Shown: positions 185-64,000 of the stretch, one piece after another
Layout of the letters: each line of letters begins with the position of its first letter
How positions within the stretch are numbered: the first letter of the stretch is position 1
IMG/VR virus record: IMGVR_UViG_3300009370_000007
Span: 32,001 to 96,000 of that record
Source: a virus
Length of the DNA stretch: 64,000 nucleotides
Direction: 5' to 3' (one strand)
Translations under genes and position numbers: made by a program
The notes under the pieces: model-generated
Databases searched by the model: none
What the model was told of the DNA's origin: nothing
Seen by the model: the letters and a program-made list of their open reading frames with translations, nothing else

Positions 185-409
185 TTATCCCATATCTATA
201 TTGACATTTGCCTGGGGAGTTGCCGTCCTATAAGAAAGAACCAAAGTTGAAATTCTCTTATGCAAATCTTCAATATCAAGAGTTCCATCTTCTTTTAATT
301 CACATCCAATATTTTTTTTATCTAATATAACATTACCATTATCTTCAATGGTCACAACATACTTCCTCTTATTTAAATTTTCTTTATGTTTTGTTATTAT
401 AATGGCCAT
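185..409 (-). CDS. hypothetical protein (74 aa)
   Basis: ORF packed 2 nt after the 412..1629 gene, same strand; no recognisable motif. Confidence 0.65.
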   Translation of the reverse strand: MAIIITKHKENLNKRKYVVTIEDNGNVILDKKNIGCELKEDGTLDIEDLHKRISTLVLSYRTATPQANVNIDMG

Positions 410-4728: not shown

Positions 4729-4764
4729 AAAAAAAAGGAGCCCATACTATAATATATAGGCTCC
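4729..4764 (-). terminator. intrinsic terminator between gp19 and gp20
   Basis: Minus-strand RNA GGAGCCUAUA-8 nt loop-UAUGGGCUCC (10 bp stem, one G-U pair) followed by U8. Confidence 0.8.
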
Positions 4765-31500: not shown

Positions 31501-34500
31501 TATCAATTGAAGGATATTCTCCTGCCATTGAAAGTGTATTTGCAATAAAGATTGCATTCAGATTCTTTATTCCTGTTGAGTCAATAACCTTATCTGTTTG
31601 AATCCATACATCGCCATTTCCCGTTGGAGTAAATGTACTAACAACTGTATCGGAGTCATAGAAGAATGCAAGAATTTCTCTATCGGCAGCATATTGGGCA
31701 GCCTTGCCTGCACTAAGGGCGCTAAGTGAAAGCGCGTTAACAGAATCTATTGCAGAATAACGAACCTCATACCATCCAGATTTTGCCTCTGCATATTGAG
31801 ATGGTGGCACACCAAAGGTTCCCCCGGATGGAACATTCTTATATGGTGCTAATTGCTGACCATATTCTCCGTCTAATGTTCCGTGGTATCCTCCGTTATT
31901 ATAATAATATAAATCAGAAACAAGATTTGCAGAACCAGTTCCATCATACACAGCAGAATTATTTGCATGATAACGATATAGTGTATTATTGTTTGCAGTA
32001 TTATACCAAAGATCACCATGAGGGTCTGCATTAGGAATCTGAGTTTCCCCATCAGAAAAGACAGGACTTAAAGTTGGGTCAGGACCATTATAACGATACT
32101 TCTCTATGTCGGTCGGGGCAGATCCATCAATAGTCCTACGTCCATGTGGCTGAATATATGTAAAGACCTTGCCGTCAGAAAGCCCCTTTAAATTAGTAAG
32201 TCCTACAAAGCTGTCAGCAGACATATAGTCAGAGGGTTTGGGGTTTTGTGATTCTATAGAAACTTCTTCTAATTGAAATCCATCATAATATACCGTCTTT
32301 GAACCAGCAAGAGTTGGTTTTAATTTTAGTATAATTTTATTTAATTCGTCCTTTGGAGATACTGATAAATCAAGAATTACATATTGTCTCAACCAGCCCC
32401 GCAAACCTGCTGTAGTTAGATTGCTAATATTAGTGGCAGTATCAGTAACAACATTGGCATCTTTGGTATAATCTTTAGAGTTTTCGGCAACAATACCGGC
32501 AACCTCAGAAACGCCTCCAGCCGAATCCGTTTCTTTTGAAAAATATGAAAGTATCCACTTCTTTCCCTCTGGAATATCAATTCCATATTTTTCAAAAGTT
32601 GTAGTGTCAGGAGTTCCTGTTGCAGTTGTATTTGAAAATATAATATCATATGATCCGGCACTTCCCGATGCAACTTTTAGACTACGAGGACTGTTCCAAA
32701 ATTTTGTAGAATCTAAACTAACTGTCCAACTACCACTTGCATCATAAGTTATTGCAAAATCTTTTAGAGATCTACGATTTGCCGTATCTATAGAATAAGC
32801 AGCTTCGGGTGGAGTTCCCCCAAATAATGAAAGTTCAGTTGGAATATAATTCTTCGTTCCAGACTTGGCTTCTGCAAATAACTGAAGATAAAGATCCCCC
32901 ATGAATCCAGCCGATTGATTCCCCATAGTAGCATGGTCATTGGCATTATACCAAATTCCTGCGCTGCCAGCATCAGTATTTTGCCAACGAGAAACAATCC
33001 AACTATTTGCAGGGCCTCTATTCGTATCAATCCAGATGTCTCCATTGCCCGTTGCAATTGGTTCACTATCTGAGAAAAATCCTACAACAAAATGATCTGC
33101 TGATGCTGCCTTTAATAGACCTTGATTGGCTGTTAATTCAATTCTTTCTAATTGATTATTCGCAAACAAGGCAAGATTATATGCATTTGCAGCAAGGCTA
33201 TTTGCTGCATAGGCAACTGCATTTACCGCAAGAATAGATAAGTCTTTTCCTTCATACCAACCAGTCTTAGAAGAAGCTCTATTAAATTCATTTGTATAAT
33301 AAACCGTTTGGGCCCAGGTTCCTGCATTGTCCTCGCCGAGCCCCCAAGTTTTGGAGAATGATGTATTTGTTAAATATACAAATGCAGCAGTATTATTAGA
33401 CGTATTAAACCAAAGGTCGCCTCTTGGATTTGGATTAGCTGTTCCATCTTCCGATATTGCAACATTAGGTCCATAGGTAGGGGCGGGTTGATGTGGGTAT
33501 GGATACTGATGATCCCAAAAAATTAATGATCTTCGATCTGCAACATTTTGGGCAGCATAGGATTGTAGATAAATTCGACCAAAGGCATCGTTTGGAGCAT
33601 GACGCCATGCAAGTGCTGTGGTATGATCGGCTGGTGTATTGGCAAATCCACCAATAGAATTTTGCCAACGATGAATTGCCTTTGTGCTTAGAGTTCCATC
33701 GGGAAGAACGGTTTTGTCATCGCCACCAGTATTTGCATTAATCCAAACATCACCATATTGGGCAGTCAGATGTTTCCATGAACCAGCATAGAAGGTATCT
33801 GTATCTTGTGCGTCGGTATAAATGGTAACTTCATGGAGGCTTGCATTTGCAGCAAGACGTTGGGCTTCTCTTGCTGCTGCGTCGGCATTGGAAATGTCAA
33901 TTCCCAGCTTAATAAGTTCCTCTTCAAGTGTAAGACTTCCAACAGAACTTCCAGATACTTGGAGAGCCGAGTTGGCAATAATGTTAACATCTATTTCACA
34001 CCATGCACTCGGATCATCGTCTATCGTTCCGCTATAGGCTTCGGCTCCTCCATCGGCCCCAATGCCGGGAGTTCCTACAAGAATATATGAGGCATTACTC
34101 TGAAAACCTAATGTTGCCGTGTCTGTATTTCCGGCACCAAAGACAGTATTCGATGCACCACAACGTACCATTGCTTCTAATAATTTGCCACCCTTTGTTG
34201 TTGGGGTTCCATAACGATTATCTCTTAGTTCACCTGAACCAATAATAAAAACATAACAATTTGGCCCTAACAGATTCAAGTCGTCTGCCAACTTGTCGGC
34301 ATTCGTATGATTATCTGGAGTTGTTATATTATAACGCCAACGCAGAGGGGTGACTCCCAGTGCTGCGGGAACTGTTTGAATTCCATTTTCAGTTGAAGAA
34401 GCTGGTGCGTTCGGCATCATTGTGGTATCACCATCATCAATCGTTGCACCACGGAAACCACCAACTACTCGATCCCAAATATATACGTCAAACTCTCCTT

Positions 34501-58561: not shown

Positions 58562-59842
58562 TTAATATCCACCCTTCGCGCCATCAGCCTGCTGAAAATC
58601 AGCCTTGGTCATTTGCTCTAGTTCAACAAAATTAAGAGTCAAATCAGTTTCAACAGGATGACCATCATAAAATGTTGCATTAACTCCCGCACCTGCATAA
58701 TTTACATCAACACTTGTGCAGGCGCACATTCTAATTTTATGAAGTTTTGCTTGATTCCAATATTCGATACCAAATTGATTTGGATATTGCCAAAAGGCTC
58801 CATAAGAGGAACTTTCGTAAAAAGAAGGAGCAGAATAAAATTTAAATGCTCGAATAATAGCCTGAACTTCATTGGCTTCTTTTTGATTTCTAGGAGAAAA
58901 CTTAAAGGTGAATGAAAAATTTCTAAATTCAACTCCATTAAAAAATTGTTCCATGTGAGGATTGACTGCAATCTTATCGTATTCCTTTAATCCCAGTTGA
59001 ACAAGCGATTCCTGCCCAATTATTCCGGCTGCTTTTTGAAGCCCAGCTATGGCTGCGCTGCCGGTGCCAGTCCCAACAGCAGATCCCGCAATTTCCCAAC
59101 CAGAAGCTCCCCGCTTAAATTGCTTCACTCCTTGTTTTATCATCGCCCCAACCTGGCCAAGTTCTCCTGCGGCCCAATTTGCACGATAACTTTCATTTAT
59201 TTGATGGGGCATATACAAAATAATTTGTCCAATACTTTGTTTACTGAATCCACTCAACCCACCAAGACCAGATGCAATTGCTCCAATGCTTCCTGGCAAA
59301 TCCGCTATTCCTCCAAGTTGACCCATTCCCTCGTCCACAAACCCCCCGATGGTGGCACTTCCTAAATCCCCCAACCCAACAGCAGAAGTTACGCTATCCA
59401 TTGCTCCACCGACAGCACCAGTAACAGAATCAACGGCTCCTGTTACTGCGTTAACTGCTCCGCCAACAGCATTAAGAGCACCAGAAATTCCTCCTCCAAT
59501 AGCAGAACCCACATCACTATTTTTAATTTCACTAAGAACATTATTTAAAAATCCGCCTTCGGTGTTTTCTTCTGGGGAATTTCTTCCAGAAGATTTAAGT
59601 TTTGCTCCATGAACAGAGTGAACAGTAAAGCGAACAAAATGTCCCTCTTCAGGGCCCTCGACATCTAATGGGTATCTTAAGTTTAGTCTAGCAAATTTAT
59701 CCGTATGTAGGCCTACAAATTGCCCAGAGCCGGTTACGCCTTCAAAGGCTCCACTAAAATCAGCATAGGCTTCTTTGGCTCCAGCGACGAGGCCTCCCCC
59801 TCCTCCTTCTGCCGAATCTCCCGTTACATCTCCTTCACTCAT
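58562..59842 (-). CDS. gp48: baseplate tail tube cap
   Basis: LRYPLD, IILYMP, NPHMEQFFNGVEFRNFSFTFKFSPRNQKEA, LTLNFVELE. Confidence 0.9.
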   Translation of the reverse strand: MSEGDVTGDSAEGGGGGLVAGAKEAYADFSGAFEGVTGSGQFVGLHTDKFARLNLRYPLDVEGPEEGHFVRFTVHSVHGAKLKSSGRNSPEENTEGGFLNNVLSEIKNSDVGSAIGGGISGALNAVGGAVNAVTGAVDSVTGAVGGAMDSVTSAVGLGDLGSATIGGFVDEGMGQLGGIADLPGSIGAIASGLGGLSGFSKQSIGQIILYMPHQINESYRANWAAGELGQVGAMIKQGVKQFKRGASGWEIAGSAVGTGTGSAAIAGLQKAAGIIGQESLVQLGLKEYDKIAVNPHMEQFFNGVEFRNFSFTFKFSPRNQKEANEVQAIIRAFKFYSAPSFYESSSYGAFWQYPNQFGIEYWNQAKLHKIRMCACTSVDVNYAGAGVNATFYDGHPVETDLTLNFVELEQMTKADFQQADGAKGGY

Positions 59843-59886: not shown

Positions 59887-60339
59887 GCATATAAAGGAAA
59901 ATGGCGACCAAAGAATATAGAAAAGTACGAAGGCAATCATGCAAAAATTGTATATCGCTCTTTATGGGAACGTCAGGCCTTTAAGTGGTGTGACGCCAAC
60001 CCAAAGGTAGTAAAGTGGAGCAGCGAGAGCGTGATAGTCCCATACATCTCAAAGACCGATGGTAGACGGCATCGGTACTATGTGGATTTAAAAATAACCT
60101 ATGATACTGGAAAAACTATTCTTGTTGAAATTAAACCCAAACGCCAAACCAAACCCCCCAAAAAGAAAACAAAAAAAACCAGAAGGTATATCACAGAAGT
60201 TATGGCATACGGAAAAAATACATCTAAGTGGGAATATGCAGAAGAGTTTGCAAAATCCCGGGGGTGGGAATTTCAAATATGGACAGAGGACACATTAAAA
60301 GAATTGGGCATCAAAATACTTAAAAATTCTAATAAATAG
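59884..60339 (+). CDS. gp4: head completion nuclease
   Basis: MAYKGKWRPKN..KY.G, YRSLWE, WSSE, HRYYVD, VEIKP, KW..A. Confidence 0.95.
   Translation: MAYKGKWRPKNIEKYEGNHAKIVYRSLWERQAFKWCDANPKVVKWSSESVIVPYISKTDGRRHRYYVDLKITYDTGKTILVEIKPKRQTKPPKKKTKKTRRYITEVMAYGKNTSKWEYAEEFAKSRGWEFQIWTEDTLKELGIKILKNSNK
60331..60338 (+). promoter_or_regulatory. probable late promoter variant (AATAAATA) for gp2
   Basis: 7/8 match ending 5 nt before the gp2 ATG. Confidence 0.55.
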
Positions 60340-60343
60340 TAAT

Positions 60344-60967
60344 ATGGCAACAGAAAGCGCATTCACTACTATTCTTCATTCCGGTCGAGGGATAAAGAAA
60401 ACAGAAGAAGCCAGGGAATGGTATAGACGCCAAGCTGGACGAGTCAGAAGAGGCCAACAAAGAACAAGACCAAATCAATTGCTCTTGGACGCAAAGGCAA
60501 GAGGAACTCTAAGACAAAGACTGAGAATGCCATTTATGATTGGCAATATGTATATGTTTAGATATAACCCAAAATTAAGAGAATCTCTTAATTATTATGA
60601 CACTCTTCCTCTGGTATTTCCCATTGAACAATATGAAGATGGATTTTTGGCAATCAATATGCATTATCTTTTTCCAAAATACAGAGCAATACTAATGGAT
60701 AAATTGTATCCTCTACTAAGAAACAATAGAATGGACGAAACAACTCGACTTAGACTTACATATGAACTTCTAAATGGGACAAGAAAGTATAAATATTTCA
60801 AACCATGTCTTCATCGGTATTTGAGAGAGCAAGTTGAATCGAGATATATTCAGATTCCAGTTGAAGAATGGGACATTGCATTATTTCTTCCGACAGACCG
60901 ATTTAAAAAAGCCACAAGAAGAAAGGTCTGGGCACAATCAAGAAAGGACATATTCTTAGGAAGGTAA
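60344..60967 (+). CDS. gp2: DNA end protector protein
   Basis: GNMYMFRYNPK...YYDTLPL, GFLAINMHYL, KPCLHRYL, WDIALFLP. Confidence 0.95.
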   Translation: MATESAFTTILHSGRGIKKTEEAREWYRRQAGRVRRGQQRTRPNQLLLDAKARGTLRQRLRMPFMIGNMYMFRYNPKLRESLNYYDTLPLVFPIEQYEDGFLAINMHYLFPKYRAILMDKLYPLLRNNRMDETTRLRLTYELLNGTRKYKYFKPCLHRYLREQVESRYIQIPVEEWDIALFLPTDRFKKATRRKVWAQSRKDIFLGR

Positions 60968-60979
60968 GGAAAAATTTAA

Positions 60980-61714
60980 ATGAACATAAATCAATTTAAA
61001 GCAAGTTTAAGGGGACAGCACTTAGCCTCTCCTTCAAACTTTAGAGTAATGTTCTCCGGGGGAGTTTTAAAGAGTGGACCGGCGAGGGCAATTGCATTTC
61101 AATGTAACCAGGCCCAACTGCCTGGGCAATCTTTTGCCACCAACGAAATTAGAACATACGGACCTATTCGCAAAATGCCATATTCTTTTATCTATGACGA
61201 TCTTCAATTGGGAATTTATTGCACAGAAGACATGGATGTAAAGAGAACCTTTGATGATTGGATGAATGCCGTTGGAGACAACATAACTGGTGATTTTAAT
61301 TATTATAGCAATTATACTACGGACATTGACATTGAACAATTAGATAGTAAGGGAAGAGTTACATATGCAATTAAAGTCTTGGAGGCATATCCGATGATGG
61401 TTCAGCCCCTTGCATTAGATTATTCTCAATCAAATTCATTTCATAATTTACCAGTAACATTTGCATTCCGCAAATGGAGGGAAGAGCCAATTCCACTCAA
61501 CCCCTTTGCGAGCAATCTTAATATTAACTCTCTTTATCCAAATTTTGATATTTCATCAACCCTAGATAGATTTGGAGTTGCTGTTGTTAGTCGAGCAGAA
61601 GGACAGGTTTCTGCTAAAATTGAACAAGGAATTAGTTTTGCAGGATCAGTTGCATCTGCATCAACATCAACAAACAAAACACACTCATCTGATAATTATT
61701 TTATTAACAATTAA
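60980..61714 (+). CDS. tail tube-fold protein (gp54/gp19-like tube initiator)
   Basis: ASPSNFRV, CNQAQLPG, YGPIRKMPY, FDDWM, EAYP, VTFAFRKW; positioned between gp2 and gp26. Confidence 0.8.
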   Translation: MNINQFKASLRGQHLASPSNFRVMFSGGVLKSGPARAIAFQCNQAQLPGQSFATNEIRTYGPIRKMPYSFIYDDLQLGIYCTEDMDVKRTFDDWMNAVGDNITGDFNYYSNYTTDIDIEQLDSKGRVTYAIKVLEAYPMMVQPLALDYSQSNSFHNLPVTFAFRKWREEPIPLNPFASNLNINSLYPNFDISSTLDRFGVAVVSRAEGQVSAKIEQGISFAGSVASASTSTNKTHSSDNYFINN

Positions 61715-61743: not shown

Positions 61744-62472
61744 ATGGCATTACCGAAACTTGATGTACCGATACATGAATTGACTTTACCATCGACCGGA
61801 GAAAAACTTAAATACCGACCCTTTCTAGTAAAAGAACAAAAGATTCTTTTCATGGCAAACGAAGGGGAAGACTCAAAAGAAATGGTAGATTCTTTACGCC
61901 AAATCATAACCAATTGTTGCATTGACGACATAGAAGTAGAAGACCTTCCAATTTTTGATATAGAATATATTTTTCTACAACTGCGATCTAAGTCTGTTGG
62001 GGAACAATCTACTCTACAATTTAAGTGTCAAAATGTCATGGAAGAAAGCACTTGTGGTGGAATTGTTGAAATGAATTTAGATTTATCAAAAATTAAAGTT
62101 CATAAAGACAAAAAGCATAATCCTAAAATTCAACTAACAAAAGACCTTGGGATGATTATGAGATACCCAAAAATTGAATTGTTATCTGAAATTGAAGGGC
62201 TGACTGAAGGAAAAGAGGATATGAATGAAATTCTAAAAATTATTGTTAAATGTATTGATAACATTTATGATTCTGATAATGTATACAGCGCAAAAGACCA
62301 TACCCTAGAAGAACTAGAAGAATTCCTTTTAGGAATGACCCAAGATCAATTTGAAAAAATTCAACTCTTCTTCGAGACAATGCCAAAACTAAAGGAAAAT
62401 GTTAAATATAAGTGCAACAAATGTGGCTTAGAAGATGCAGTTGATTTGGAGGGACTGCAAAGTTTTTTTTAG
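61744..62472 (+). CDS. gp26: baseplate hub assembly chaperone
   Basis: MALPKL..P...LTLPSTG...YRPFLVKEQKIL, FDIEYIFLQLRSKSVGE, MRYP, FFETMPKL, CxxC, C-terminal LEGLQSFF. Confidence 0.93.
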   Translation: MALPKLDVPIHELTLPSTGEKLKYRPFLVKEQKILFMANEGEDSKEMVDSLRQIITNCCIDDIEVEDLPIFDIEYIFLQLRSKSVGEQSTLQFKCQNVMEESTCGGIVEMNLDLSKIKVHKDKKHNPKIQLTKDLGMIMRYPKIELLSEIEGLTEGKEDMNEILKIIVKCIDNIYDSDNVYSAKDHTLEELEEFLLGMTQDQFEKIQLFFETMPKLKENVKYKCNKCGLEDAVDLEGLQSFF

Positions 62473-62495
62473 TAGGGCTATCTCACGATAGCCTT
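62448..62495 (+). promoter_or_regulatory. putative programmed -1 ribosomal frameshift signal
   Basis: GGAGG (62448-52), 10 nt spacer, slippery T TTT TTT (62463-69), hairpin GGCTATC-TCAC-GATAGCC (62476-93, extendable to 62474-95). Confidence 0.75.
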
Positions 62496-62663
62496 GATAA
62501 TTATTATAAGGTTAATTTTGCAATGATGCAGGATCATAAATATACTTTAAGCGATTTAGATAATATGATTCCTTGGGAACGAGAACTTTATGTTGCATTT
62601 TTACTTGCTCATTTAGAAGAAGAAAGAAAAAGAACAGAAGCCCAAAACGCAAAATTTAAGTAA
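62469..62663 (+). CDS. gp51: baseplate hub assembly catalyst, probably expressed as a frameshift extension of gp26 (first in-frame ATG at 62523)
   Basis: Hand translation LVGLSHDSLDNYYKVNFAMMQDHKYTLSDLDNMIPWERELYVAFLLAHLEEERKRTEAQNAKFK* contains the gp51 motif NF.MMQ.HKY.L..L.NMIPWER..Y. Missing from the ORF track. Confidence 0.88.
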   Translation, partial: LVGLSHDSLDNYYKVNFAMMQDHKYTLSDLDNMIPWERELYVAFLLAHLEEERKRTEAQNAKFK

Positions 62664-62678
62664 AGGAATATAAATTTA

Positions 62679-64000
62679 ATGGCCCTTCCTAACCCAGCAG
62701 CAGCAGTAGATAAAAAAACCCAGGCATCCAACGATCAGCTTCTTAAATTAACTCAAGAAATGCTAAAGCTCTTGGACGTGATTGCAGAGGCCACAGATGT
62801 TGCAGCAGATGAACAAGAAGTAATTGAAGAGCAAACCTCAAAAACTGCAAAAATAGAAGCAGCAATGCTTCGTATCAAAAAGCTAGAAGTTACCAAAAAT
62901 ATAGCCAAAACTCTCTGGCAAAGAAAAGTAAATCAGGCATTAATCAAAAGAGAAAAACAAAAATTCAATATGATGATACGGCAATCTGCCTCGTTATCTC
63001 ATATTGAACAACATCTTACTGGATTTTCCGAAGGCATTGTAGGCCTTCCCGCAATTCTGGACACAAACATGAGAGGAATTACTTCTCAAATTGGAGATTT
63101 TACTCTGAAAGTGGCTGGTGGATTTGGATTAATGAGAAAGGCCGGAGAAACTGCTGCGAAATGGACAAAGGGCGGATTTAATAAATTGTTCGGTCAAGGA
63201 GAAAAGAGAGCCAAAAAAGAAGAAGAAGGAAAACTCAAAGCAGTCGAAAATGATCGAGAAAATCGAAGGTTTTGGGGAAAAATGCTTGATGCCCTTGGCA
63301 GCATAAAGGGAGAAAAAGGAAAAAAAGAAGACAATATTTGGGGGAAACTGTTTCAGGCGGTTGTTCTGTTGGGAACTTTTCTTATGGCATGGTTCGCTGG
63401 ATTATTCACAGAACTTGATAATCAATTATTGGCACTAAGAGCATGGATAAGGCAGACCTGGGTTGGTAAGTTAGTATTAAGACTAAAGAAGATTCAAAAA
63501 CTTGGAATAGGAGGACTGGTTACAAGAATTTTGGCTCCCTTTGAAAAAATTATACTATGGATAAAGGGAAAATGGCTAAAGGCTACTGAAGGCATATCAA
63601 CAATGTGGACGAAACTTACAACCAATTTGACAAAATGGTTTCCAAAACTTTCTAAAATTATAAATCCAATCCTGGGTATTGGTCCACGACTTTTAGGATT
63701 ATTGGCTAAGGTTGCCTGGCCCCTTACGATATTACTTATGGCATGGGAGGCTATTAAGGGATTTATGAAAGGGTGGGAAAAATATGCCACGGGAGGATTC
63801 TGGGATGGTGTAATGGGCGGAATTCTTGGGGCCTTTGAAGGTATATTAAGATTTTTTACTGATGACCTTTTAAACTTAGCAAAAGACGTTGTTGCATGGC
63901 TTCTAGGAAAATTTGGCTGGACAGACCTAGAAGCGAAGCTAGATTCATTTGAATTCAATATTTCTGGAATAGTAACTGGTTGGTTAACTTCTGCGATAAA
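62679..64000 (+). CDS. probable tape measure protein (gp29-like), partial
   Basis: ATG 62679 with AAGGA upstream; frame checked by hand at start, middle and end and appears open. Helical N-terminus (MALPNPAAAVDKKTQASNDQLLKLTQEML), then hydrophobic G/W-rich segments (VVLLGTFLMAWFAGLF, KVAWPLTILLMAWEAIKGF). Follows gp26/gp51. Confidence 0.8.
   Translation, partial: MALPNPAAAVDKKTQASNDQLLKLTQEMLKLLDVIAEATDVAADEQEVIEEQTSKTAKIEAAMLRIKKLEVTKNIAKTLWQRKVNQALIKREKQKFNMMIRQSASLSHIEQHLTGFSEGIVGLPAILDTNMRGITSQIGDFTLKVAGGFGLMRKAGETAAKWTKGGFNKLFGQGEKRAKKEEEGKLKAVENDRENRRFWGKMLDALGSIKGEKGKKEDNIWGKLFQAVVLLGTFLMAWFAGLFTELDNQLLALRAWIRQTWVGKLVLRLKKIQKLGIGGLVTRILAPFEKIILWIKGKWLKATEGISTMWTKLTTNLTKWFPKLSKIINPILGIGPRLLGLLAKVAWPLTILLMAWEAIKGFMKGWEKYATGGFWDGVMGGILGAFEGILRFFTDDLLNLAKDVVAWLLGKFGWTDLEAKLDSFEFNISGIVTGWLTSAI

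Follow-up and report, generated by a model that had tools for sequence, protein, structure and literature searches.

The window, a 64,000-nt stretch of viral DNA (positions 32,001 to 96,000 of IMG/VR record IMGVR_UViG_3300009370_000007), carried near its 3' end a gp26-like gene, an overlapping -1-frame extension encoding a gp51 homologue, and the 5' part of a long open reading frame (Table 1). The gp26-like frame was confirmed to end CTG CAA AGT TTT TTT TAG TAG. The layout proposed for this junction from inspection of the letters (hereafter the original prediction) held in its other main elements also: T TTT TTT occupied the X XXY YYZ register, GGAGG (62448-62452) stood 10 nt 5' of this heptamer, and the -1 frame ran on for 64 open codons, giving a conceptual fusion of 306 aa. 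Translation of the -1 frame began FF LVGLSHDSLDNYYKVNFAMMQDHKY... Only two T8 runs were present in the whole 64 kb, and tRNA and Rfam scans of the window returned no matches.

Table 1. Features of the gp26-gp51 junction, in window coordinates.
Feature	Position	Strand	Description
gp26-like gene (short form, TAC-N)	61744..62472	+	242 aa, 0 frame, stop TAG 62470-62472
SD-like GGAGGG (codons ttG GAG GGa)	62448..62453	+	9-10 nt 5' of heptamer; probable stimulator
Slippery heptamer T TTT TTT, part of T8 run 62463-62470	62463..62469	+	-1 shift site (predicted)
Tandem 0-frame stops TAG TAG	62470..62475	+	abut heptamer, end short form
Stem-loop	62473..62496	+	possible lineage-specific stimulator; core 7 bp 62476-62482/62487-62493, loop TCAC, extendable to 10 bp
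-1-frame extension ('gp51' ORF)	62469..62663	+	64 codons, TTA 62469-62471 to TAA 62661-62663
First -1-frame ATG	62523..62525	+	start of 46-aa ORF expected from a gene caller; inside conserved domain
Putative tape measure ORF, 5' part	62679..64000	+	654 aa; continues beyond window end, to ~64643 in full record

The gp26-like protein was matched to Pfam PF12322 (T4_baseplate) over profile positions 2-218 of 219 (E 5e-63) and to PHROG 150 (E 8e-69). The -1 stretch was matched to PHROG 634, 'baseplate hub assembly catalyst' (E 1e-25), with the match opening at its third residue, upstream of ATG 62523, where a gp51-like segment had been proposed. By tblastn the extension was recovered from 541 phage records, and the alignment began at query residue 1 in 59 of the 60 records listed. 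The Met encoded at 62523 was a conserved internal residue (NFALMQHHKY) preceded by 20 conserved codons. From the heptamer to this Met, entropy at the three codon positions of the -1 frame was 1.07/0.67/1.45, a pattern that marks that frame as coding. Upstream of the heptamer the open part of the -1 frame was short, with a median of 24 nt in relatives and 18 nt in the window. By its entropy profile and conservation, the N-terminal segment of gp51 is under -1-frame coding selection upstream of any start codon.

The 654-aa ORF, which starts 16 nt after the end of the -1 extension, gave nothing significant in Pfam, in PHROGs, by BLASTP against T4 gp29 or by tblastn against 50,697 phage records. 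Its look-alike cluster from a language model (Atlas) carried PF25671 T4_Tape_measure with a score of 0.94, which is a lead only. The tape measure gene originally named at this place is therefore a putative one, assigned by its position and size together with the look-alike cluster; none of the tape measure families matched the ORF in sequence.

The junction was compared across 91 loci, drawn from P-SSM2, Pelagibacter phage Mosig, freshwater cyanophages and 86 IMG/VR contigs, and across a non-redundant subset of 42 representatives (<60% identity to each other). The phage of the window was <=49% identical to any relative sampled. In 91/91 related loci and 42/42 representatives, T TTT TTN stood in the X XXY YYZ register where gp26 ends, and a contiguous gp51 homologue followed in the -1 frame in all 91; neither an in-frame gp26-gp51 fusion nor a random frame relation was seen at any of them. 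Both the slippery site and the fixed -1 relation, which the original prediction had singled out for comparison across T4-like phages, were therefore kept at every locus. The 0-frame stop lay 0-24 nt past the heptamer among the 91 loci, and within 0-3 nt of it in 38 of the 42 representatives. A KVP40-type vibriophage, S-CRM01 and S-E7 had the same heptamer, register and -1 continuation. The first T of the heptamer falls on a synonymous third codon position and was T in 87/87 sequences, against a background of 76%; this invariance fits slippage of tandem tRNAs.

The Glu codon within the SD-like motif was GAG in 52 relatives and GAA in 17 (75% GAG, against 22% elsewhere in the same genes; p 5e-21). 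The bias persisted in the 42 representatives (<60% identity), with GAG in 24 and GAA in 8 (p 2e-10). As judged from this codon bias, selection at the nucleotide level acts on the upstream SD-like GAGGG. SD pairing is used weakly by the hosts of these phages.

The hairpin GGCTATC-TCAC-GATAGCC (62476-62493) was found as described, 6 nt past the heptamer, and the description was revised in one respect: the stem given by RNAfold (62473-62496) had 10 pairs, two of them G-U, and left a spacer of 3 nt. The region folded at -15.7 kcal/mol in 68 nt (z -2.4), with 7 of 200 shuffles equally good, and at -13.4 kcal/mol in a 45-nt test. Strong hairpins, unrelated to one another, were found at 9 of 87 junctions versus 36 of 1945 control windows (1.9%; Fisher p 8e-5), and the stem of the window was absent from its nearest relatives (<=49% identical). 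A family-wide stem-loop was rejected: the 45 nt past the heptamer had a mean MFE of -5.2 kcal/mol versus -4.7 kcal/mol for controls from the same genes (Mann-Whitney p 0.41). Conservation of the stem across gp26-gp51 junctions was thus not borne out, the family mean being that of the controls, and the folding comparisons make the stem-loop look like a lineage-specific addition, not a family-wide element. A simple scan also flagged the hairpin as resembling an intrinsic terminator whose tail is weak; this was set aside, as the tail (ATAATTATTA) is no U tract and the hairpin sits in a coding-selected frame.

T4 gp26 and residues 1-201 of T4 gp51 each matched PF12322 over its full length, and the -1 extension of the window aligned with T4 gp51 residues 207-249 (E 2e-5). 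A profile of 86 conceptual fusions aligned with T4 gp51 continuously over the junction (E 6e-12); with T4 gp26 the alignment ended there. By these alignments, T4 gp51 represents the predicted fusion in a natural, in-frame form, and the end of T4 gp26 coincides with the junction. T4 gene 26 ends GAG TTC TTT and has no T run, so a frameshift is not needed in T4. No second gp26-like gene of the T4 gp51 type was found in the 107-kb record, which is ~59% complete.

The gp26-like protein was modelled with AlphaFold (pLDDT 92.4), and residues 1-90 of the model were searched against 48,161 PDB chains. The top three matches were tail chaperones: HK97 2ob9 (Z 7.7), 3fgx (RBSTP2171; Z 7.6) and YqbN 3klu (Z 7.1), aligned over 84-85 residues at an rmsd of 3.7-4.2, and the fourth-ranked chain scored Z 4.7. 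According to the warning of the tool, Z 7-8 lies in the range where common structural arrangements can score. Foldseek of the gp26 model against the PDB gave no match at E <= 0.001, its top rows being proteasome subunits at a TM of ~0.1, and a PDB sequence-profile search from 63 gp26 sequences returned nothing even at E 10. In the predicted model the N-terminal domain of gp26 is a tail-assembly-chaperone-like fold, at an absolute Z that is moderate.

We consider it very probable, from comparative sequence evidence, that at this locus a T4-like marine myovirus carries its tail assembly chaperone gene and expresses it by programmed -1 ribosomal frameshifting. The proposal that gp26 and gp26-gp51 are the T4-like counterpart of lambda G/GT drew support from the conservation of the junction, from collinearity with T4 and from the chaperone fold.

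The pair is usually annotated as two independent genes, as the original prediction had remarked, and is so listed in the public records of P-SSM2, Mosig, S-CRM01, phi-pp2 and S-E7. Read in that way, gp26 would end at 62470 and gp51 would arise separately, with initiation at ATG 62523 (46 aa) or at a non-canonical start, or through re-initiation, and no fusion would form. A weak AAGG does lie 11 nt 5' of ATG 62523 (that this ATG has no clear ribosome binding site was a fair statement, not an absolute one), and in 19 of 87 relatives an ATG occurs among codons 1-8 of the -1 frame. However, 59 of the 87 have no ATG, GTG or TTG in those codons, and the 20 codons before ATG 62523 show protein-level conservation and -1-frame periodicity. 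Separate genes would also leave the invariant in-register heptamer unexplained, T4 gp51 has this conserved segment too, as an in-frame fusion with a gp26-like domain, and the records of DSL-LC03 and S-H9-1 have no gp51 gene annotated despite the presence of the conserved frame. Expression as two independent genes is thus considered very improbable.

Slippage during transcription would yield the same 306-aa fusion: RNA polymerase stuttering on T8 would add one U to some mRNAs, and standard translation of these would give a product identical to that of a -1 ribosomal shift. Bacterial RNA polymerases slip on homopolymer runs of about 8-9 or more, and the run is T8 in the window and T7 or longer in 31 of 91 relatives. 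It is only T6 followed by C in 58 of the 91, however, a short run for a polymerase to slip on. The X XXY YYZ register is constant and its synonymous first T invariant, features that matter to a ribosome and not to a polymerase, and the enriched GAGGG is a ribosome-directed element; we regard a transcriptional origin of the fusion as improbable. The original prediction had itself raised the concern that the run could really be T9 and the locus one plain fusion gene of 306 aa. Some sequencing chemistries often get the length of a homopolymer wrong, and the source here is an uncultured IMG/VR contig. Against this, an in-frame fusion was found at 0 of 91 independent loci, and the identical layout of T8 followed by TAA or TAG occurred in ~20 contigs belonging to nine lineages <60% identical to each other, alongside isolate genomes with T6C. 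Recurrence in nine divergent lineages means that T8 plus stop is not an assembly error, and a miscalled run in the window is hardly credible.

Under programmed ribosomal frameshifting, most ribosomes would read the gp26-like frame to TAG 62470 and release the 242-aa short form. A minority would slip back by one base with two tRNA-Phe on U UUU UUU, or else while the last tRNA-Phe is paused at the stop codon. Slipped ribosomes would then go on through 64 further codons of the -1 frame (UUA GUA GGG...), making the 306-aa long form, whose tail corresponds to the annotated gp51. Pairing of the SD-like GGAGGG with 16S rRNA would probably increase the rate of slipping, as probably would the adjacent stop codon and the stem-loop in the phage of the window; TAG TAG adjoining the heptamer may add a pause. 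In E. coli, U UUU UUY does not belong to the most efficient heptamers. On the model of lambda G/GT, both forms would act jointly on the downstream 654-aa putative tape measure protein as the tail tube is initiated on the baseplate hub, and both would be absent from the virion. We infer that ribosomes and not RNA polymerase do the slipping, that the short and long forms are made at a fixed ratio, and that gp26 and gp26-gp51 have chaperone activity. The junction peptide of the predicted fusion would run through ...SFFLVGLSHDSLDNYYK, and its tryptic form starts after the upstream Lys (...CNK, followed by CGLEDAVDLEGLQSFFLVG...); the peptide proposed earlier had a non-tryptic N-terminus.

Two further ideas were considered, which we think unlikely. 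The conserved internal Met at 62523 might give rise to a third product, a free gp51 peptide of 46 aa. The ratio of short to long form could be tuned lineage by lineage through interchangeable stimulators (the SD-like element, an abutting stop and independently acquired hairpins) placed round an invariant heptamer. If such tuning were true, the T8 run, TAG TAG and 10-bp stem of the window would imply an unusually high frameshift rate or a mixture of ribosomal and transcriptional slippage.

The practical value of these results lies in annotation. T4-like cyanophages, pelagiphages and KVP40-type vibriophages are still listed in public records with a separate gp26 and a truncated 'gp51', or with gp51 omitted; the real products are most likely chaperones of 242 aa and 306 aa. 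The results also support the view that T4 has the universal G/GT tail-chaperone device in a two-gene version, made up of its long-puzzling hub 'assembly catalyst' gp51 and its 'hub subunit' gp26, and on that view T4-like phages are no longer an exception among long-tailed phages. What has been added is quantitative comparative support, in the form of the invariant synonymous T, the enrichment of the SD-like element and the recurrent T8-plus-stop variant.

Set beside the signals of dnaX, IS911 and IS3, the window has all three parts at distances like those of dnaX: the SD-like element precedes the heptamer by 10 nt and the stem-loop follows it by 3-6 nt. It differs from them in its U-rich heptamer, which is not A AAA AAG, and the family differs in that the SD-like element alone is supported throughout, whereas a stem-loop occurs in ~10% of lineages. 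The parts of the dnaX/IS-type architecture named in the original prediction are present in the window; since the stem-loop is not conserved across the family, the full three-part signal cannot be claimed as the family design.

The frameshift of tail chaperone genes that yields lambda gpG and gpGT is reportedly a conserved -1 shift (Levin et al. 1993; Xu, Hendrix and Duda, Mol Cell 2004). Likeness to lambda G/GT is seen in the overlapping frames just 5' of a presumed tape measure gene, in a predicted -1 shift at X XXY YYZ near the end of the short form, and in a long form made up of the short form with an extension at its C-terminus. In contrast, the sequences have no detectable similarity, gp26 is roughly double gpG in size and has an extra domain with two Cys pairs, and the heptamer is U UUU UUY here and G GGA AAG in lambda. 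An SD-like stimulator is present in the gp26/gp51 system; to our knowledge, the lambda G/GT frameshift needs none.

T4 itself is alike in that its gp26 resembles the short form, with the same ...GL(K/Q)xFF end, and its gp51 resembles the long form, collinear over the junction; it differs in that genes 26 and 51 are separate paralogues that are divergently transcribed. The identification of gp26/gp51 as the T4-like TAC-N/TAC-NC pair has been credited to Vladimirov, Gautam and Davidson (Virology 2022, 566:9-15, doi 10.1016/j.virol.2021.11.003) in PMC10885494 and PMC12846349. As summarised in PMC12846349, that work places a poly-T slippery site at the 3' end of the T4-like TAC-N gene, and, as summarised in PMC10885494, the long form in T4 itself is a separate fused gene. 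Going by these summaries, the frameshift arrangement of gp26/gp51 has been known for T4-like phages since 2022, and the present reading is supported and is not new; as the proposal has been in print since then, the window is one more member of the group and no discovery. As far as the summaries describe that pair, it shares with the window PF12322 plus the gp51 C-terminal segment, the logic of a short and a long form, and the poly-T site. Nothing essential differs on the same footing, and the window is a variant in which T8 abuts the stop and a strong hairpin of its own follows.

The junction between the gp26-like gene and the gp51 homologue was re-read from the sequence, and the coordinates and counts of the original prediction, a -1 frameshift fusing the two upstream of the tape measure gene, were all correct (table below). 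Conceptual translation through the heptamer gave a gp26-gp51 fusion of 306 aa. The stem grew to ten pairs (62473-62496) in RNAfold, and the 68 nt starting at the heptamer folded with an MFE of -15.7 kcal/mol (z -2.4 relative to dinucleotide-shuffled sequence). Only three other 8-base homopolymers were present in the window (312-319, 4729-4736 and 60171-60178; one T8, two A8).

Features of the gp26/gp51 junction and the ORF that follows it (window positions; L013 is a stretch of the full record that reaches past the window end)
Feature	Position	Strand	Details
gp26-like ORF (0 frame)	61744..62472	+	242 aa; 3' end reads CTG CAA AGT TTT TTT TAG TAG
GGAGG	62448-62452	+	10 nt 5' of the heptamer
T run, 8 bases	62463-62470	+	first seven bases give T TTT TTT, 0-frame X XXY YYZ register
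Stem GGCTATC / GATAGCC, loop TCAC	62476-62493	+	6 nt 3' of the heptamer
-1-frame extension	ends TAA 62661-62663	+	FF-LVGLSHDSLDNYYKVNFAMMQDHKY... from the heptamer; 64 further open codons
Downstream ORF	62679-64000 and beyond (L013:680-2641)	+	654 aa

The 0-frame protein matched Pfam PF12322 (T4_baseplate, the T4 gp26 family; E 5e-63) and PHROG 150 'baseplate hub'. The -1 stretch matched PHROG 634 'baseplate hub assembly catalyst' (gp51; E 1e-25) from its third residue, 18 codons 5' of the first ATG (62523), and also aligned with the PHROG 150 profile at its C-terminal end; this segment is therefore in frame in some gp26-family members. The source record is a 107-kb IMG/VR virus at about 59% completeness and has a single PF12322 gene; the window has a GC content of 39.9%, and its closest DNA matches were marine T4-like phages of Prochlorococcus, Synechococcus, Pelagibacter and Methylophilales. 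Two Cys pairs at about gp26 residues 95-104 and 223-226 (C-x-C/C-x2-C-like, e.g. KCNKCG near the C-terminus) were conserved in some family members and in T4 gp26/gp51 (CPECG, CPKCK) and replaced in others (P-SSM2, Mosig) in gp26 protein alignments A1 and A2, and may be an optional zinc-ribbon-like element of the second domain.

Junctions were compared among the window, P-SSM2, Pelagibacter phage Mosig, Synechococcus phages DSL-LC03 and S-H9-1, and 86 IMG/VR contigs collected using gp26 or a gp26 alignment as query (relatives' gp26 38-49% identical to the window's protein). T TTT TTN stood in the same register at the end of the gp26 frame in 91/91 loci, window included (TTTTTTC 58, TTTTTTT 31, TTTTTTA 2), and in 42/42 representatives after thinning to <60% identity. 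The 0-frame stop lay 0-24 nt past the heptamer, and the -1 frame ran on for 55-72 codons with conserved FFxxxLSHDSLxNYYKTNFALMQHHKYSL... (two contigs end early). An in-frame fusion or any other frame relation was found in 0/91 loci; the slippery site and frame relation are thus fixed across these T4-like relatives, as the original prediction expected. The same layout was present in a KVP40-type vibriophage (Straboviridae), freshwater cyanophage S-CRM01 and S-E7, and tblastn with the -1 stretch matched 541 phage records, the alignment beginning at query residue 1 (the heptamer's two Phe codons) in 59/60 matches listed.

Column entropy by -1-frame codon position was 1.07 / 0.67 / 1.45 in the stretch from the heptamer to the conserved Met, the usual pattern of coding sequence; 5' of the heptamer the pattern followed the 0 frame. 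ATG, GTG or TTG was absent from the first eight -1 codons in 59/87 unique junctions, so the conserved segment in these could not be made by ordinary initiation. The proposal that the gp51-like segment 5' of ATG 62523 is read in the -1 frame is supported by both observations. The -1 frame had a median open length of just 24 nt 5' of the heptamer (18 nt for the window's own junction), so that a productive shift is confined essentially to the heptamer.

A homopolymer assembly error, with T9 in place of T8 in a plain fusion gene, was ruled out because the window's exact layout (TTTTTTT followed directly by TAA or TAG) recurred in about 20 contigs and in 9/42 representatives; it also points to a stop codon in the A site as a potential pause. 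Transcriptional slippage at the T8 run may contribute in the window and would give the same protein as a ribosomal shift, but the run is no longer than T6 in most relatives, a short tract for polymerase slippage, and the junctions carry ribosome-type features. The heptamer begins at position 3 of the codon that precedes Phe-Phe (AGT, AAT, GAT, TCT or GCT), and this base was T in 87/87 junctions vs 76% at comparable codons of the same genes; it is required by tandem tRNA slippage and not by the protein sequence. A conserved Glu 12-14 nt 5' of the heptamer was GAG in 52 loci and GAA in 17, against a GAG share of only 22% among the other Glu codons of the same genes (p 5e-21; 24:8 in the 42 representatives, p 2e-10), and GAG here yields an SD-like GAGGG. 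The invariant first T and the GAG preference point to the ribosome as the slipping agent, and the most likely mechanism, on these sequence patterns, is a programmed -1 ribosomal frameshift giving a short (TAC-N) and a long (TAC-NC) tail assembly chaperone.

All three parts of the predicted signal, SD-like element, heptamer and hairpin, are present in the window, but the hairpin is not a family-wide feature: the 45 nt 3' of the heptamer averaged -5.2 vs -4.7 kcal/mol in same-gene control windows (p 0.41). Strong hairpins (<= -12 kcal/mol, starting 0-5 nt past the heptamer) occurred at 9/87 junctions vs 36/1945 control windows (p 8e-5) and comprised at least five unrelated sequences (those of the window, the P-SSM2 clade, S-H9-1 and loci L080 and L090). 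The P-SSM2 hairpin (locus L001, 1539-1568: GTATGGCTCA ... TGAGTCATAC, about -15 kcal/mol, 5-6 nt after TTTTTTC) was common to L001, L072, L084, L086 and L088 and unrelated in sequence to the window's stem. The window's stem is real and is probably helpful to frameshifting; given these unrelated hairpins it appears to be a lineage-specific addition. The stem was absent from the window's nearest relatives, whose gp26 is at most 49% identical.

The window's gp26, modelled with AlphaFold from a 63-sequence alignment (mean pLDDT 92.4, pTM 0.86), had no match in the PDB by Foldseek or by sequence-profile search. An exhaustive VIA-align search of 48,161 chains ranked 2ob9, the HK97 tail assembly chaperone, first (Z 7.7 over 84 aligned residues), then 3fgx (Z 7.6) and B. 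subtilis YqbN 3klu (Z 7.1), all three on model residues 1-90; the fourth hit dropped to Z 4.7. 3fgx and 3klu are reportedly the remaining solved tail assembly chaperones in the comparison by Pell et al. 2013. Because these hits were well separated and of telling identity, the model supports a chaperone fold for the N-terminal region at moderate absolute Z. The downstream ORF, similar in size to T4 gp29 (590 aa), matched nothing in Pfam or the PHROGs, nor any of 50,697 phage records by tblastn at E 1e-5; its language-model look-alike cluster carries PF25671 T4_Tape_measure (0.94), the only pointer to a putative tape measure. For a core tail gene its divergence is unusual; the protein is rich in Trp/Gly/Leu segments, and its N-terminal part is charged and probably coiled. 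Elsewhere, a 426-aa ORF (58562-59842, - strand) has a very Gly/Ala/Ser-repeat-rich N-terminal half.

Public genome records either split the two frames into distinct genes or omit gp51, in keeping with the claim that they are normally annotated as independent. DSL-LC03 (L003) and S-H9-1 (L004) have the conserved -1 frame at about 1520-1700 and no gp51 gene in GenBank/RefSeq; the gp51 annotations of Mosig, phi-pp2 and S-E7 begin at the internal Met and miss about 20 conserved residues. The observation behind the original prediction was thus confirmed and its interpretation supported. Novelty is low because both kind and family are already published: as summarised in PMC10885494 from Vladimirov, Gautam and Davidson (Virology 2022, 566:9-15), some T4-like phages have one short and one longer fused gene in place of frameshifting, and their TAC-N/TAC-NC terms appear in PMC12846349. 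In what these texts relate, gp26/gp51 as the T4-like short/long chaperone pair is already in print.

Just 5' of gp26, window 60344-61714 holds genes for a gp2-like DNA end protector (PHROG 429, E 2e-47) and for a protein of the tail-tube family (PHROG 45; Pfam gp19-like). In the Mosig record the gene that directly precedes gp26 is named 'baseplate tail tube initiator'. With these neighbours, gene order differs from T4, where gene 51 is followed by 27, 28 and 29. T4 has two separate genes, 26 (208 aa) and 51 (249 aa), with divergent transcription. T4 gp26 ends ...GLKEFF, resembling the window's ...GLQSFF, but is encoded there by GAG TTC TTT without a T run. T4 gp26 and T4 gp51 (residues 1-201) both match PF12322 along its full length, and T4 gp51 residues 207-249 align to the window's -1 extension (E 2e-5). 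A profile of 86 conceptual fusion products aligned to T4 gp26 over positions 10-241, halting at the junction, and to T4 gp51 residues 120-244 over positions 153-284 in a single stretch across it (E 6e-12). T4 gp51 thus corresponds, in frame, to the predicted long form and T4 gp26 to the short one.
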